A DNA stretch of 64,000 bases from the NCBI GenBank assembly GCA_000004985.1, contig GG738848.1; one strand, 5' to 3'. The stretch comes from Naegleria gruberi. Taxonomy: Eukaryota. The notes under the pieces were generated by a model. It was not told where the DNA came from. It did not search any database and saw nothing but the letters and a program-made list of their open reading frames with translations. Made by a program: the position numbers and the translations under genes. Positions 1 through 38,571 of the stretch are shown in pieces. Every line of letters starts with the position of its first letter. Within the stretch, counting starts at the first letter, position 1.

Positions 1-1523
1 GAAGGAAAACGATTGATTGATAATTCGACGTCTGTAAATCTTCCATTGGAGGAGCAGCAACCAACAAAGAAGAAGAAGAAAAAAGCAGAACAAATTTCAC
101 CTGAATTGCAAACCTATCTCTCGAATCCTTTCTCTATCCTAGAAAGGTATGTAATTTTTATTGGATGAATTGTTAGTTAACTAACAACAATGTTATTTAT
201 ATCGGAAAAGAACTGAGATTGGTAAAATGACAGAACAGTTTTTGGGAGTTATTGGAAAATCAATTTTCTATGTTGTTATTATTGTGTATTTATTTGGAGA
301 TTTGGCAATTTATGCTGTTTCAGTACCAACATCTTTACTGAAGGTTACAGGACCTATGTTTGGATTGGATCCAAAATCAACTTATTATATTTATTTGGGA
401 ATCTTCTCGTGTATTGTGGTTCCTTTCAGTTTCTTCAATTTCCAAAAGACTAAATATTTGCAGTACATGACACTTGCAACAAGAAATATTGCATTCTTCT
501 TGATGATTTTGCTCAGTTTAATTTTCATTATTGAAGGAAATGGATCAACTAAGAATCTTCAATTCTTTAATTTTTCTATGGAAAGTTTTTCAAAGCTCTT
601 TTCAATTTCAATTTATGCATTTATGTGTCACCACTCTCTTCCATCCATTATTTCTCCAATTCACGATAAGAGAAGATTAACAATCATGTTTGTGGTTGAC
701 TTTGTAATGATTTTCTTTGCTTATGGTATGTAGATTTCATGAGTTGCATTTGAGATAACATTTTGATTAGTTTGCATGTGTTATGTAGCAGTTTTTGCTT
801 TTGGAGAACAACCTTTTGAAACATGTTCAAACAGAATTCATGATGGACCACCATGTGAAATTCAAGCATTATTTACTTTGAATTTCACCACTTATCGTTA
901 CACCTTAATTGCTGCCTTCTTGGCTCTCTTCCCAGTTTTCACACTCACCAGTAACTATCCTCTTATTGCCATTACCTTGAGAAATAATACTCAAATTTTG
1001 TTCGAAAAAGTCAAAATCATTCACGAGTGGAAATATAACTCATATCTCTTCTCTGCTCTTGCCTCAATTCCTCCAATCATCCTTGCTTTTGCCTATCAAA
1101 ATATTTCAACACTAGTCAGTTTTACTGGTGGTTTTGCTGGATTATTCATTCAGGTAAGTTAATCTTGAGAATATCTTAATAATTTTATTTACACACAATT
1201 AATAGTGCATTTTCCCAACTCTCCTTGCAGTATTTGCAAGAGTAAAAGTTATGAAAATGGAAGAGGAATTAGAAAATGAATCATCCTACTCAATCAATGC
1301 TGAAGAACCACCAGTTCAAACCAAATCAGAGGCCCTGAAGAAACTTGGTAAGAAGATTTTTGTTTTCCTTTTCACAACACCAAGAAGAATCCTCAAAAAT
1401 CCTCACACCAGTCCATTCTCTCAAGGTTATTGGGTTATTGGCATTTTGTTATTCTCTCTCTTTGCTCTCGTTGTTAACAGTTACTCTTTAATTAAGTGTG
1501 ACATTTTACAAGAATGTAAATAA
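1..1523 (+). CDS. Multi-pass membrane protein, amino-acid-transporter-like (Aa_trans/TMEM104-like); 5' end lies outside the window
   Basis: Exons <1..146, 211..725, 771..1153 and 1206..1523 join in frame. Introns are 147..210 (GTATGT..AAG, contains ACTAAC), 726..770 (GTATGT..TAG) and 1154..1205 (GTAAGT..TAG). Frame 1 is open from base 1. The protein is strongly hydrophobic throughout. The motif YAFMCHHSLPSIISPI resembles this transporter family from memory. Confidence 0.7.
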
Positions 1524-11174: not shown

Positions 11175-12887
11175 TTATTTCTTCTCTTCTTCAATCTTAA
11201 TTTCGTCTGATTTATCTTTGGCATTATCACTGGTTGTACTTTTATCATCATCTTCCTTCTCTTCCTCAAGCTTTTTCTTTTCAAATTCCTTTCTCAAATT
11301 ATCAACTTCAACCAAATACTCTTCAACATGATTAAGACAATCTTCCTTTTCATAGATATATCTCATCAAGTAGGTTTGAACTTCAGCAGTGGTCAACTTG
11401 TGTTCAGGAATCAATTCAGAAATCTTGGCTCCCAATTCTTCATCCTTAAAGAATCTGGCAGCCATTTGTCTGATTTGATCCTTAGTAGAGTTTTCAAACT
11501 TGATTTTGAAATCAATTCTTCCAGGTCTAACAAGAGCAGGATCCAATCTATCAATGTGATTTGTAGTCATAAAGATAATTCTAGGGAATTGAGAGAATGA
11601 AGCAACACCATCGAGAGCATTCAATAATCCTGAAAAACTAACTCCTTGAACATCTGCAGAGGCCTTTCTATTTTCATTGAATGCTGCATCAATATCTTCC
11701 AATAGAACGATACCTCTTTTTGGGAGCTTTGTTAACATCTTTTGCAATTTGGAATCGTCCAAGCTCTTATCATTCAAACTAACTGAAAATAAACAACACT
11801 TCAATTTGGCAGCCATAGCCAAAACTAAACTTGATTTACCAGAACCAGGAGGACCATAACAAAGATACCCTCTCTGATAATTGAGACTATTTTCCCTGTA
11901 GAAGATTTCATTACTCATAAATCTATCCATGTCCTTAATCAAATTTTGCTTAATGTCTTCTTCCAAATAGACAGTATCAAATGAACGATAAGGTCTATCA
12001 CACAACTTTTCCCAATCTCTATAATAATCAGTGGAGAGAGTATAGACTGAAGTGACACCCTTCTCACTTTGGAAATAACATTCAATGGCTTCTTGAAGAA
12101 TATTCTTCAAAATTTCCTTTCCATTCCATGCAGAAACAGTAAGAACAAGTTTTGTAGTATCTTCCTTGTCACCATTCTTATCCTTTTCAAAACTTGGGTC
12201 GATACGTTGAATGGTAATCTTGTGACCTTTGAAATAAAAGCCATGTGAACCAGGACCTGGAACAAGTTGTAAAACTAGATCATTTTCATTGTCTTCCTCA
12301 TTGTGACGATGATTATTTGAGAGATCATTCTTGGCATGAACTGTCAGATGCTTGGCATTTTGAAAATGTTCAACAGTACCCAACCAATGCATCAAACAAA
12401 CATAAATAGTATTGAACTTGTAATTTTCCTTTTCCTTCACTTCAACAGAATAATTGAAAATATCTCTAATGTAATAATAGATTTCTTCAAGTTTGTTCAC
12501 AACATAGGTCCAAACTTTACCAAACACAACCAATGCAATACCGGCAGTGAAAATATTATTACTCGTCATGAAAGAAAACATGAAGGAAATGAAAAATTGA
12601 AACAAGGCAGATTGGACCACAAAACTTGGAAAACAAACCAAAACCAAAGATTCCAATCCCTTGTGAATATATTGATCAGTCATGGTAGAATTCCATATCA
12701 TTGAACCATTATTTCCGGTGCCACCAAAAGGAGAGGAAGCATTAAAAGAAGAACCAAAAAACATTGATCCCGTAAAGAATTGACTCAAGAATGAATTTGA
12801 TTCAAAGAAACCACCACCCTGCGTTAAAGTAGTCAAGGGATTATGCTCAGAGGAGAGCAATGTACTGAGAGGAGAATCAGTGGCCAT
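11175..12887 (-). CDS. BCS1: BCS1-like mitochondrial AAA+ ATPase chaperone
   Basis: Single exon. The Walker A motif is GPPGSGKSS and the Walker B motif is VLLEDIDAAF. The motifs SFSGLLNALDGV and MTTNHIDRLDPALVRPGRID, plus the N-terminal membrane anchor, are typical of BCS1. Confidence 0.92.
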   Translation of the reverse strand: MATDSPLSTLLSSEHNPLTTLTQGGGFFESNSFLSQFFTGSMFFGSSFNASSPFGGTGNNGSMIWNSTMTDQYIHKGLESLVLVCFPSFVVQSALFQFFISFMFSFMTSNNIFTAGIALVVFGKVWTYVVNKLEEIYYYIRDIFNYSVEVKEKENYKFNTIYVCLMHWLGTVEHFQNAKHLTVHAKNDLSNNHRHNEEDNENDLVLQLVPGPGSHGFYFKGHKITIQRIDPSFEKDKNGDKEDTTKLVLTVSAWNGKEILKNILQEAIECYFQSEKGVTSVYTLSTDYYRDWEKLCDRPYRSFDTVYLEEDIKQNLIKDMDRFMSNEIFYRENSLNYQRGYLCYGPPGSGKSSLVLAMAAKLKCCLFSVSLNDKSLDDSKLQKMLTKLPKRGIVLLEDIDAAFNENRKASADVQGVSFSGLLNALDGVASFSQFPRIIFMTTNHIDRLDPALVRPGRIDFKIKFENSTKDQIRQMAARFFKDEELGAKISELIPEHKLTTAEVQTYLMRYIYEKEDCLNHVEEYLVEVDNLRKEFEKKKLEEEKEDDDKSTTSDNAKDKSDEIKIEEEKK

Positions 12888-23002: not shown

Positions 23003-23075
23003 TGGGGTCTGTGAGGATCGAACTCACGACCTTAGGATTATGAGACCTACGCGCTACCGACTGCGCCAAGACCCC
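23003..23075 (-). tRNA. tRNA-Met, elongator type (anticodon CAT), copy 1 of 3
   Basis: The reverse complement folds as a cloverleaf: ggggtct..agacccc acceptor stem, anticodon loop ctCATaa, T loop gagttcgatcctc. It is identical to the copies at 48226 and 51541. Confidence 0.92.
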
Positions 23076-34449: not shown

Positions 34450-37400
34450 TTATTGTCTCTTGTATTTGATGATATATTCAGGATAGCACTGATATCTATC
34501 ATAGACAATCAATTCTCTATATGAATTACTTGTAGTATTTGATTGGCCAATCACACTATCAAAGACTCTTCTATTCTTTCCAACAATTTCTGGAGGTCTT
34601 CTTTGATTGGTCATTCCTTGGGGTGTGAAATAGACTTGTCTTCCCAAAACAACTCTACACAGGAATATAGTATATTCCTTATTAAGGTCTGGAGTGCAAT
34701 ATTGGTCACTCTTTGAACAATACTCAGCAAAATAAACTCCAGCTCCAAATAAACCACCCAAACTTGCAACTCTTTCATCAAATCCATGTTCTGAAATGGT
34801 TGAAACAAATTCAGGTTTTGTTCCGTGCCATAAGTACTTTTCATTCATTCCACTATTCAATCCAACTGTTTTCATCCATTCGTAGGATTTGCTTGTTTTT
34901 GGCAATAGTTCTGTTTGAACTTGGATTGTCTTGATAGGATCTTGATAAGATGTCAAATGATTCATTCTTGATTTGTATGAAGTGAAAAGTGTTGCATTTT
35001 CAATTCTTGAAACACTTGAAACAATTAATTTGGAATAATTCATTTTCACTTGTTGATCTCTACCAGTTCCAAGTGTTGCAGAATTACATGAAACATTGAC
35101 AATATCTTGAATGGTATTTTTCAAATATTTTGTAACATCCACAATGTAAAATCTTTTAGAATAGGATGTGAATGTATTTCTCTTCCAATAACTTGGCAAG
35201 ACAATATTCAATTGTCTAGATTTGGATTCTTCCAATTCCTTTTCCATGTCTTGTAATTTCTTTTCCTTACTTTTCAATCTGCTAATTTGATTTGTAATTT
35301 CTTCTCTTTCCTTAACACTTTGATTGGTGAATTCCTTTGTTTTCTGTTCAAGTTTCTTGATTTCTTGTGTGAGATTGGATTTATCTTGTTTGAGATTGAA
35401 TTTAACTTGATTCAATTGTTTTTCATATTCCTTCAATTGTTTTGATTGATTTGAAATGGATTTGACTTGTTCTTGAACTTTGATTTCATCCAAGAGAGTA
35501 TCCTTCAAAAAGAATTCACAAACAAGAGCATCTGATGCAAATGGTCTGTCATTTGGATCATTAGTCATACATTGTTGAACTAGAGTATTCAATGATGAGT
35601 AAGTATTCAATTCTTGAGCAGTCATACAATTCTTGATGGTTTTTCCAAATGCAAACATATCTGATTTGAATGTTGCTGATTGACCATTCATTAATTCAGG
35701 TGATAGATAGTCATATGTTCCAGAAACAGAAGTTCTAGTGTACAAATTCATTGTTCTACTTTGAACATCCAAACTAACATCAAAATCTCCCAAAATAATT
35801 GGATATAGACCATTGTTACATTCTCCAACAAATATATTCTCAGGTTTGATATCACAATGAATGACACCTCTGGAATGAATATGTTGAATGGCAATTAATA
35901 CTTGTCTCCATGTTCTTTCCCAAAAAAGTACTTCTAATTTGGTGGATTTTCTTTGTTTTTCAAGAAATTCCTTCAAATTACCATTCGAATAATATGGCAT
36001 TACAATATAAACATTGTTGGTGGAATGGCTATTATCATTAGACATGTAAAATCCTTCAATTTCAATAATATTGTTATGTTTCAACTTTTTTGTAATCTTG
36101 AGTTCTTTTTGTAAACTTTCCAATTTTTTGTTATCCTTGATTGAATATTGTTTAATGATATGTTTCTTATCGTTAATATCAGTTCCAATAAACAAGTGAT
36201 GATTTCCATTCCAATCTTGAATTGGCTTAATTTCTTTGAATAAATCGGCTGACATTTCTTCAATATTCATTGTGGATGCAATACTTGATGACAGGATTGA
36301 CTCAACATTGAATCCAATAGTTTTCAATTGGAGGAACTTCAACTTGATTTCATTTGTCTGTTCAATACATTCCTTGAGTACTTTCTTTTTTTCTTGTAAG
36401 GTTGTTTCCTTTTCTTTAATTTCATCCTCAATTTGCATGGATTCAGTCTTGTTTGTAACATGTACTAATTCATCTCTCAATCCATCAATGTCAAGTTTAA
36501 TAATGGTCAATTCTCTTGTTACTCTTGCTTTCTTTCTTTGTAAAGCAGAATATTGTTCTGTCAATTGCTTGTAATCATTCATAATGTTTACAATATTTTG
36601 CAATTGTTCATGTTGTTCAATAATGAATGGAATGGTTTCTTGAATGAGCTTGTTTCCATTATTAAATTGATTTTGATAATCACAATAAATTTGATAAATT
36701 CCAATTTGAACTAGTTCAGGAAGCAAATTTTTAGTATTAGAAATTGCTTTTTGTAATTCCAATTCCTCCTTTGAAAGCATTTCCATTGCAATCTCTAAAT
36801 TATTTGCAATTCCATTCAAATTAACACTTGTGGCATTATTAATGGATGATGCAATATTTTGTAATTGAGTTGAAATATTTTGTAAAACATTTTTGGATTT
36901 TCCTTCATAATTTGAATCTGTAGTTGAACCATTTAAACTTTTAAGTGTTTTTTGAATTTTTTCAATTGTTAATTCCTTATTTAGGTTATCATTAGCATTG
37001 TAATATTGTAATTGATCTTGATTCAAGTAATTTTGAACAAATTCATCAAATATTTGTAATTTTTCATCTAATGCTTGAATATAGCTATTCAATTGAATTA
37101 AATAATTTTCTGAATTAATTCTTTCTACTATATTTGTAATATTTAACATGTCATTATTAATTAAAGCCACATGTTCAACATTTTCAATATCACACTTATT
37201 ATTCATCAATCTATCATTAATAGTTGAACAACATTCGGATAAAACTCCATTAATTTTCGAATAAACTTGTTGTAGCTCAGTATCAAATGATAATTGATCT
37301 GAAAGTGGAATTACCGAATTCAATTGAGAAGTTACTTGTTTTCTATATTGAGAAACTTTCTCATTCAATGAACACAACTCTGTGAAAACTTGAAATACTG

Positions 37401-38571
37401 AAAGGAAAGTTTGTTTCTTTTCCTTTTCAATTCTTTCCTGTTCAAGTCTTTCGTTTTCAATTCTTTCTTGTTCGAATCTTATTTGATCAGCACGTTCCTT
37501 TTCAAGTCTCTTCTTTTCCAACATTTCTTTTGTAATTCTTTCCTTTTCAATTCTTTCCTTTTCGAGTTTGTCGACTTCTTGTTTAATTATGGAAATTGAT
37601 TTTCCATTAATTTTTAAATTGTTATCAACAACGATATTTGGGGAAGCAAGTAGCAATTTGACAATTTCTAAATTTCCTTTTTGGCAAGCAATAAACAAAG
37701 GAGTGAACTATATATGGTAATATAACTAAATTAATAAATTAAATTTACTTACATTCTAATAAAAATTAGTAAAAAATTTAAATAATAATTGATTGCTTAC
37801 ATTCTATAATGATACATTGAGTATTGAAATATTTCAAATAAATTTTTACTTACATACTAAAATTAATTAATTAAAAAAAATTAATAAAAAATTTTTACTT
37901 ACTCGCTATTTAAATTTTAAATAAAATTAAAAAATAATTAAATACTCACATCCTAATAAACAATATTAAAAAATCAATTAAATTTTACTTACAAACTAAA
38001 TAATATTAACATGTAAATAATAAAATATTATTACTTACAAACTATTATTTTAAAAATTATAAATTTTAAAAATTAAAGCACTTACTCTCTAATAATTATT
38101 TAATACATTTAAAATTAAGTATATTAAGTAATACCTACTTCCTATATAAATATTAAATAAAAAATCGACCATGTAAAATACTTACATACTAAAAATGGAA
38201 TTAAATAAAAAAATAAAATTTTTAACTTACAGTCTATTAAAAATTAAATAAACATTTAAATATAAAACACTCACACCCTACCATCATTAATATATCCAAT
38301 ACATTCACTTCATAACTACTTACACACTAAAAATGTCAACTGTCAACACAATAAATCAAATACTCACACCCTTGTTCACATTAATTTCTGCATAATTCAA
38401 CAATAATTTAACAATTTCCACGCGTCCATTTTCACAAGCATTATACAACATTGTCTTTCCTATTTTTCCATTAGAATATTCATTGATATCTGCTTTTTTA
38501 AACCATTGTTTAAATTCCTTGACATTTCCTGTGGAGGCAGCATCAAGTGCGTTCTCAAAGTTTTTGGACAT
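34450..38571 (-). CDS. Ankyrin repeat / coiled-coil / protein kinase / coiled-coil / PARP catalytic domain fusion protein
   Basis: The first exon is 38368..38571, with ATG at 38571 after an A-run; it encodes ANK repeat 1 (GKTMLYNACENGRVEIVKLLLNYAEINVNKG). The last exon is 34450..37707 and begins FTPLFIACQKGNLEIVKLLL (ANK repeat 2). Kinase motifs are HSRGVIHCDIKPENIF, LGDFDVS and YDYLSPE. PARP motifs are YLWHGTKPEFVSTISEHGFD, GAGVYFAEYCSKSDQY and YRELIVYD, so the H-Y-E positions are all present. The region between the two exons is the mini-intron array listed separately. Confidence 0.88.
37708..38367 (-). repeat. Tandem array of 14 intron-like units (40-50 nt) separated by 13 spacers of exactly 3 nt
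   Basis: Read on the minus strand, every unit is GT[AG]AGT (9 GTAAGT, 3 GTGAGT, 1 GTAGGT, 1 GTAAGC) ... AT-rich ... TAG. Unit lengths are 41, 46, 41, 42, 44, 50, 44, 43, 40, 44, 46, 50, 45 and 45 nt. The 3-nt spacers (plus-strand coordinates) are 38324-26 TGT, 38275-77 GGT, 38231-33 ACT, 38186-88 TAT, 38139-41 GAA, 38086-88 AGA, 38039-41 TTT, 37993-95 TTT, 37950-52 GAT, 37903-05 CGA, 37854-56 TAT, 37801-03 AAT and 37753-55 AAT. The sum 621 + 39 = 660 nt equals the gap between the flanking phase-0 exons. Confidence 0.85.

Follow-up and report, generated by a model that had tools for sequence, protein, structure and literature searches.

Fourteen intron-like units separated by three-nucleotide spacers in an ankyrin-kinase-PARP gene of Naegleria gruberi: a candidate run of one-codon exons

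The ankyrin (ANK)-kinase-PARP gene of Naegleria gruberi raises the question of how the 660 nucleotides (nt) lying between its two coding exons are removed from the transcript, and of what they may contribute to the protein. The gene occupies positions 34450-38571 of a 64,000-nt stretch of nuclear DNA (contig GG738848.1, assembly GCA_000004985.1), referred to here as the window, and all of its features described below lie on the minus strand. Exon 1 (38368..38571) consists of 68 codons, from the ATG to the sequence INVNKG, and encodes an N-terminal cap and ankyrin repeat 1. Exon 2 (34450..37707) comprises 1085 codons and a stop, opens with ankyrin repeat 2 (FTPLFIAC...) and continues through a coiled coil, a protein kinase and a PARP catalytic domain. 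The first exon ends and the second begins in phase 0, with a predicted product of 1153-1166 residues, for which Pfam reports two ankyrin repeats spanning the exon 1/exon 2 junction, followed by Pkinase and the PARP catalytic domain. Since both exons align to the N. gruberi paralogue NAEGRDRAFT_70343 (P0211), exon 1 to its N-terminus, both appear to be real and to have to be joined. It is considered likely, with a probability of about 0.6, that the 660 nt between them represent fourteen ordinary short U2-type introns which are cut out separately, and that the thirteen codons lying between these introns (CGTYERFFDRYNN) are kept in the messenger RNA (mRNA).

Read on the minus strand from 38367 to 37708, the interruption parses completely into fourteen units of 40-50 nt and thirteen spacers, in agreement with an earlier note on this DNA, which had described fourteen units, thirteen non-stop spacers of exactly 3 nt and phase 0 flanks. 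In the direction of transcription, unit 1 (38327..38367, 41 nt) begins with GTGAGTAT, ends in TTTAG and carries TTGAC branch-like motifs 9 and 16 nt from its 3' end; it is followed by the spacer TGT (38324..38326), a putative one-codon exon for Cys. Unit 2 (38278..38323, 46 nt, from GTAAGTAG to GGTAG) precedes GGT (38275..38277, Gly), and unit 3 (38234..38274, 41 nt, from GTGAGTGT to AATAG) precedes ACT (38231..38233, Thr). Unit 4 (38189..38230), whose 42 nt are a multiple of three, has an in-frame TAA at codon 3 and is separated by TAT (38186..38188, Tyr) from unit 5 (38142..38185, 44 nt), after which come GAA (38139..38141, Glu) and unit 6 (38089..38138, 50 nt), which begins with GTAGGT, the weakest 5' site of the array. 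The next spacers, AGA (38086..38088, Arg), TTT (38039..38041, Phe) and a second TTT (37993..37995, Phe), enclose unit 7 (38042..38085, 44 nt) and unit 8 (37996..38038, 43 nt). Unit 9, the shortest (37953..37992, 40 nt), then leads to GAT (37950..37952, Asp), unit 10 (37906..37949, 44 nt) to CGA (37903..37905, Arg), unit 11 (37857..37902, 46 nt) to TAT (37854..37856, Tyr) and unit 12 (37804..37853, 50 nt) to AAT (37801..37803, Asn). Unit 13 (37756..37800, 45 nt) begins with GTAAGC and contains a perfect TACTAAT branch motif, and a further AAT (37753..37755, Asn) separates it from unit 14 (37708..37752, 45 nt); both of these units are multiples of three with an in-frame stop.

The borders of the units are uniform. 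The 5' start is GTAAGT in nine of the fourteen units, GTGAGT in three, and GTAGGT and GTAAGC in one each (all GTRRGY, fitting GTRNGT), the 3' end is TAG in 14/14, and the junctions read TAG NNN GTRRGY in 13/13. The spacers measure 3 nt in every case while the lengths of the units vary, and there are no stop codons (0/13) and no triplets beginning with GT (0/13) among them. The junction motif TAGNNNGTRRGY has 17 matches on both strands of the window, 13 of them in the array; three of the four outside it fall within genes for the methionine transfer RNA (tRNA-Met), which contain TAGCGCGTAGGT. A pattern of three consecutive units had four matches in the window and none in 100 dinucleotide shuffles, and other spacer lengths from 0 to 12 nt remained at background level, with no occurrence in the window of a 0-nt spacer (an AG/GT junction). 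A chance origin of the array pattern is excluded.

For comparison, seven introns elsewhere in the window, putative since they were inferred by joining long open reading frames (ORFs), measure 43-54 nt, begin with GTAAGT or GTATGT, and end in TAG (6/7) or CAG (1/7); the likeness in size between array units and window introns that had been described earlier is borne out. The interiors of the units have a G+C content of 9.5%, and their mean pairwise similarity score is 4.5 against 3.1 +/- 0.5 in shuffles, a weak excess of about 2.9 standard deviations, with adjacent units no more alike than distant ones. Each G-containing signal position, on the other hand, is intact in 14/14 units, and all 28 splice signals have been kept. 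Because the interiors are near-random yet all signals and the 3-nt spacing have been preserved, it is well supported that selection acts on the splice signals rather than on the repeat sequence, as the earlier note had proposed. A minisatellite inside a single intron was considered as a candidate and ruled out by the near-random interiors and the invariant signal positions. The donors show a further regularity, with an A at intron position +7 in 11/14 units (P = 0.0017), which extends the pairing with U1. A G at exon position -1 occurs in 0/13 cases in the array, compared with 5/7 in the other inferred introns; the array donors therefore make up inside the intron, through the +7 A, for the G that the one-codon exon lacks. 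As for the branch motifs that had been noticed in many units, a YTRAY motif (TTAAT, CTAAT or TTGAC) whose A lies 9-16 nt before the 3' end is found in 9/14, a motif common by chance in AT-rich DNA, and the perfect TACTAAT form is restricted to unit 13. The array RNA showed no Rfam match and no unusual fold (z = -0.37).

Whether the spacers are translated is a separate matter. The triplets differ from the interior sequence (P = 0.0005 under an interior model), and G or C occupies 9/26 of their first and second positions, compared with 9.5% in the interiors (P = 0.0004). A direct junction of the two exons would leave the loop between the ankyrin repeats 4 residues shorter than that of the paralogue P0211 at exactly the site of the array, and the paralogue has an extra ankyrin repeat there. 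Inclusion of the 13 codons in the mRNA is probable. Residues 36-125 of P0211 form three ankyrin repeats in which LEIVKLLLSCKTIDVNL is repeated exactly, the extra repeat lying where the gene described here has its array; the exact repetition suggests a recent internal duplication of one ankyrin repeat in the paralogue.

Arrays of the same design have been found in other organisms. A full HMMER search identified P0217, an ANK-coiled coil-kinase homologue encoded by the metagenome contig k141_1457473 (ENA ERZ27315067, 36% G+C), which shares 33% identity with the N. gruberi protein in an alignment extending from ankyrin repeat 2 through the kinase. This contig starts inside an array of at least five units (locus L126, positions 1-260), of which four measure 42 nt, with differences of 1-3 nt among them and the spacers TGG, CAA, CGA and GTT in between. 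The fifth, of 45 nt, ends right before ACT CCA TTG TAT, the codons for TPLY (TPLYAAC), with a long intact ORF behind. The L126 array occupies the site homologous to that of N. gruberi, shifted by one codon, and its codons differ from those of N. gruberi. It had been argued that free variation of splice-like motifs between species would speak for an unconstrained minisatellite, and the opposite is seen here; as the L126 gene, at 33% identity, could be an orthologue or a paralogue, its array at the homologous site is no more than suggestive in this respect. A likeness between L126 units and N. gruberi units, mainly unit 1, was also considered and set aside, the best P values of 0.003-0.006 being not significant after correction for 28 comparisons. 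The homologues in N. fowleri and N. lovaniensis (L121-L123) have neither the ankyrin exon nor the array.

Metagenome contigs scanned for three junction elements in succession yielded at least 120 loci; among the matches listed, most were plain satellites or (GTAA)n-type repeats and two were genic. The first of these, L001 (Ga0207864_1037532, 1020-1425, 17% G+C), lies in a gene with consensus ankyrin repeats from a very AT-rich eukaryote, which is unrelated to the N. gruberi gene. Its loop can be read as ...GADVNAKN / K / W / N / S / TPLHFAS..., in which five introns of 35-44 nt alternate with four one-codon exons. With the four codons the ankyrin repeat has the canonical 33 residues, and without them 29, and inclusion of the codons lifts the Pfam Ank_5 score from 80.2 to 95.6 bits. 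This locus provides good indirect evidence that the one-codon exons in such arrays are translated. An 82-nt "intron" before the previous TPLH of L001 (about 944-1025) resembles a pair of mini-introns flanking a TTT codon, with GTAAAC as a weak donor. The second genic match, L078 (JACKZZ010005374.1, offsets 277-560, minus strand, 25% G+C), consists of five nearly identical units of 53-54 nt running from GTAAGT to AATAG, with the spacers GAA, TTG, TCA, TAT and CGT. The L078 array is situated downstream of an ORF (...RRLRNEIKQDAKMLEN); read in phase 0, it runs directly into a TGA, so that its spacers are no more than candidate codons. Intron identity within L126 and within L078 amounts to 93-98%, and the codons in between are unrelated. 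As such arrays recur at a homologous site and in unrelated genes, the sequence comparison shows them to be what appears to be a real class of gene structure.

Several of the remaining matches were instructive in their own right. The loci L005, L014, L029 and L097, together with many contigs of the Ga0209628/Ga0123357 type, carry long (GTAA/GTAG)n-derived microsatellites that mimic TAG-NNN-GTAAGT; these mimics are spaced in multiples of 4 and act as false positives for genome-wide scans for arrays. Two viral candidates were rejected: in the giant-virus contig L124 (IMG/VR GVMAG-M-3300024502-1), the match within the last 400 nt is due to an in-frame 42-nt coding repeat, (GTAAGTCCGCTCGTGTATCACGTAAAAGACGTTCAGTAGCAC)n, rather than to introns, and a second viral contig matched the three-unit pattern by chance.

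The removal of the 660 nt as fourteen introns would proceed through familiar steps. Each unit possesses its own strong 5' site, a putative branch region, a TAG acceptor and the usual intron length, and would be recognised and removed alone, through intron definition and the pairing of nearest sites. Where strong sites compete, splicing uses the one 5' site that is nearest to the acceptor, and the first AG after the branch serves as acceptor. Because each 3' site lies only 3 nt from the following 5' site, neighbouring units could not be occupied at once and would have to be spliced one after another. If the units are excised separately, no splice site remains by which a spacer could be removed, and the 39 nt would therefore stay in the mRNA as thirteen one-codon exons, in frame. 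The earlier note had distinguished one-codon exons from stepwise removal of the whole stretch; where each unit is a real intron the two come to the same product, since the 3-nt spacers are irremovable once the flanking units are gone. Recursive splicing in the strict sense, with regenerated 5' sites, was also among its proposals and does not hold, as no spacer begins with GT and there is no 0-nt AG/GT junction. With full inclusion the mRNA would read ...GTGAACAAGGGT TGTGGTACTTATGAAAGATTTTTTGATCGATATAATAAT TTCACTCCTTTG..., with CGTYERFFDRYNN placed at the tip of the hairpin loop that links ankyrin repeat 1 to ankyrin repeat 2. Such an array would be self-maintaining. Retention of any single unit produces a frameshift or an in-frame stop, and for this reason purifying selection would hold each signal and the 3-nt spacing: the loss of a signal would result in a broken mRNA, and the fusion of two units would require a deletion across their junction. 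The array could in this way persist with no need for the loop residues to be useful.

Several observations weigh against separate excision with full inclusion. The gap of 3 nt between acceptor and donor is sterically awkward, and thirteen consecutive gaps of this size are without precedent. In 5/14 units the branch motifs are distant or degenerate. The spacers are somewhat atypical as codons as well (P = 0.02 under a coding model), with only A or T in their third positions. The Ank_2 score is 64.4 bits for the direct junction and 58.9 bits with the 13-residue insert. In BLASTP comparisons with the paralogue P0211, the score increased from 127 bits without CGTYERFFDRYNN to 140 bits with it; this gain was nonetheless set aside as evidence of homology, as random 13-mers came close to it (P = 0.06-0.11). 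In addition, a word-indexed search of protein collections, one run of which was dominated by ankyrin and low-complexity matches, found no model of the ANK-kinase-PARP gene among them. Only paralogues were obtained, namely NAEGRDRAFT_70343 at 55-64% identity and a PARP-only model at 84%, and these named N. gruberi paralogues are the closest relatives of the gene. The array may perhaps have defeated automatic annotation.

The same features can be arranged differently if a 5' site often pairs with a later acceptor, skipping one-codon exons and generating up to 2^13 in-frame variants of the loop. All spacers being 3 nt long and both flanks in phase 0, any subset of the codons would remain in frame, and a fused pair of units, at about 90 nt, would be within the range of the longer candidate introns of the window. 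The array site is an ankyrin hairpin tip, and such tips contribute to target binding. The canonical loop length and the loops of the paralogue are also better fitted by a few extra residues than by 0 or 13. Frequent and harmless skipping, however, should have allowed junctions to be lost through small deletions, and 13/13 are intact despite the decayed interiors; the general preference for nearest-site pairing likewise favours full inclusion. Variable inclusion of this kind is possible but rather unlikely.

A further arrangement, and an improbable one, is that of one long intron, in which the 5' site at 38367 pairs with the acceptor at 37708 and the internal signals are decoys or see dead-end or intermediate use. 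The mRNA would then join AACAAGGGT directly to TTCACTCC, that is, ...AACAAGGGT to TTCACTCCTTTG... (...NVNKG/FTPLF...), a junction that yields a good G-x-TPL ankyrin motif and the higher of the two Ank_2 scores. Unused signals, on the other hand, should have decayed as the interiors did; instead 28 have been kept, constraint is evident at position +7, and the spacing never departs from 3 nt. Splicing would need to pass over thirteen strong internal donor/acceptor pairs in an intron more than 12 times the usual size in the window, and the array RNA has no unusual fold that would bring its ends together. The loop would also fall short of the paralogue's by the 4 residues mentioned above, and the equivalent direct junction in L001 is the one that leaves a 29-residue ankyrin repeat. 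One long intron in which 26 internal signals go unused is a poor fit to the data. Least credible of all, and very improbable, is a functionless relic, whether an AT-rich minisatellite free of constraint or what is left of a dead 5' exon, the true start of the protein being inside exon 2. The lack of a gene model among the databases searched agrees with it, as does the weak periodicity of 39-46 nt that Tandem Repeats Finder reports over units 7-10. Minisatellite units are homogeneous, though, whereas here the interiors are near-random and the signals invariant. Exon 1 is moreover an intact 68-codon ORF within AT-rich DNA, homologous to the N-terminus of the paralogue, ankyrin repeat 2, with which exon 2 opens, lacks a separate ATG upstream, and the same design precedes a long intact ORF in L126.

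If the units are separately excised introns, the array could have originated through local multiplication of an intron at a loop tolerant of length change, either because an intron was duplicated together with one codon or because the intron by itself was copied into codon boundaries nearby. Among the four readings that it left side by side, the earlier note had listed duplication of an intron-plus-codon unit, or repeated insertion of an introner with a 3-bp target duplication, citing the adjacent identical spacers TTT/TTT and AAT/AAT. These pairs lend weak support (permutation P = 0.07), and the arrays of L126 and L078, in which no identical adjacent spacers occur as a sign of target-site duplication, complicate the proposal. 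A simple duplication of intron and codon does not explain either of them because their introns are near-identical and their codons unrelated, which argues either that introns alone are copied into neighbouring codon boundaries or that gene conversion has been limited to the introns. L001, where the codons fit into a canonical repeat that was already there, favours the invasion of existing codon boundaries by introns. An introner family finds no support within the 64-kb window, where no full-length copy of any unit occurs outside the array and the only matches are AT-rich and 11-21 nt long. A broader conjecture, also unlikely, is that one-codon-exon arrays would be recurrent in AT-rich protists, through a process that copies introns exactly one codon away, and that at ankyrin hairpin tips such arrays could supply many in-frame loop variants of one gene when subsets of the codons are skipped.

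No published description of consecutive one-codon exons separated by minimal introns was found in full-text literature searches. Single 3-nt microexons have been documented in Drosophila homothorax (PMC7392893) and in human MAP4K5 (PMC8632122), as well as in cytohesin-1 (PMC6314551) and RPS24 (PMC12686416), and plants possess microexons and small clusters of them (PMC8831610). Like the putative one-codon exons of the array, 3-nt microexons consist of one codon between functional splice sites and leave the frame intact; the single residue gained usually lies in a surface loop, and the small size of the exon is offset by strong splice sites on either side. Known microexons differ in being single, or few and adjacent with mixed sizes, usually between long introns, and many of them need special factors; the array would present thirteen in succession, all of 3 nt, among introns of 40-50 nt in an intron-poor protist. 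In long introns of Drosophila and vertebrates, the ratchet points of recursive splicing are zero-length exons of the form AG/GTAAGT. There too a long stretch is removed stepwise through adjoining internal 3' and 5' sites, but the acceptor abuts a regenerated donor and nothing is left, whereas in the array a 3-nt spacer would stay in the mRNA; the host stretch also amounts to 660 nt in the array and to tens of kilobases for ratchet points.

Closer to the possible origin of the array, Zhuo et al. reportedly described introns that arise from the expansion of intron-containing tandem repeats. The creation of introns by such expansion has been documented in Cryptococcus (PMC2395259). As in the array, the introns of one gene are then related by local duplication, and their copy number shifts through slippage or unequal crossing-over. 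In those cases a sizeable exon segment is duplicated with the intron, whereas the "exon" of the array is a single codon; moreover, the N. gruberi introns have diverged beyond recognition and the codons of L126 and L078 are unrelated, unlike the products of repeat expansion. Introner-like elements also multiply introns (PMC3609843), and introners have been described in dinoflagellates (PMC7789003). They resemble L126 and L078 in the multiplication of near-identical intron copies, but are dispersed over many genes and are often longer and structured, whereas the array copies stand one codon apart within one loop. The stwintrons, or spliceosomal twin introns, of fungi (PMC8469720) would share with the array several consecutive U2-type reactions in a fixed order. 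They are nested, however, one intron interrupting a splice signal of another with nothing left behind, while the array units lie side by side, are complete and would leave codons.

If confirmed by RNA data, the array would be much longer than any other known run of one-codon exons, and it would provide a natural test of the minimal spacing between 3' and 5' sites, of the order of intron removal and of intron definition with an exon of 3 nt. For the study of intron gain, the four arrays appear to represent different ages, with N. gruberi diverged, L126 and L078 nearly identical and L001 intermediate. The younger arrays suggest that introns can multiply one codon apart with no duplication of the codon, a pattern not foreseen by current models of intron gain. 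The array may also exemplify a structure locked in place by selection with no usefulness of its own, the loss of any signal being harmful. Gene finders and standard aligners for RNA sequencing reads will miss genes of this kind.

Within the rest of the gene, a 15-nt tandem repeat is present in exon 2 (37419-37563; 9.7 copies, 66% matches), which codes for a charged coiled-coil stretch of the ERIEKERLEK type right after ankyrin repeat 2; the paralogue has a similar stretch. The surrounding window is gene-dense and intron-poor, with about 33% G+C. One of its ORFs, BCS1 (11175-12887), matches a partial N. gruberi protein at 100% identity and its counterparts in Willaertia and N. fowleri at 68% and 58%, respectively. 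Between 16135 and 58949 the protein genes are interspersed with eight tRNA genes, four of them tRNA-Met (CAT) genes at 23003, 48226, 51541 and 52103.

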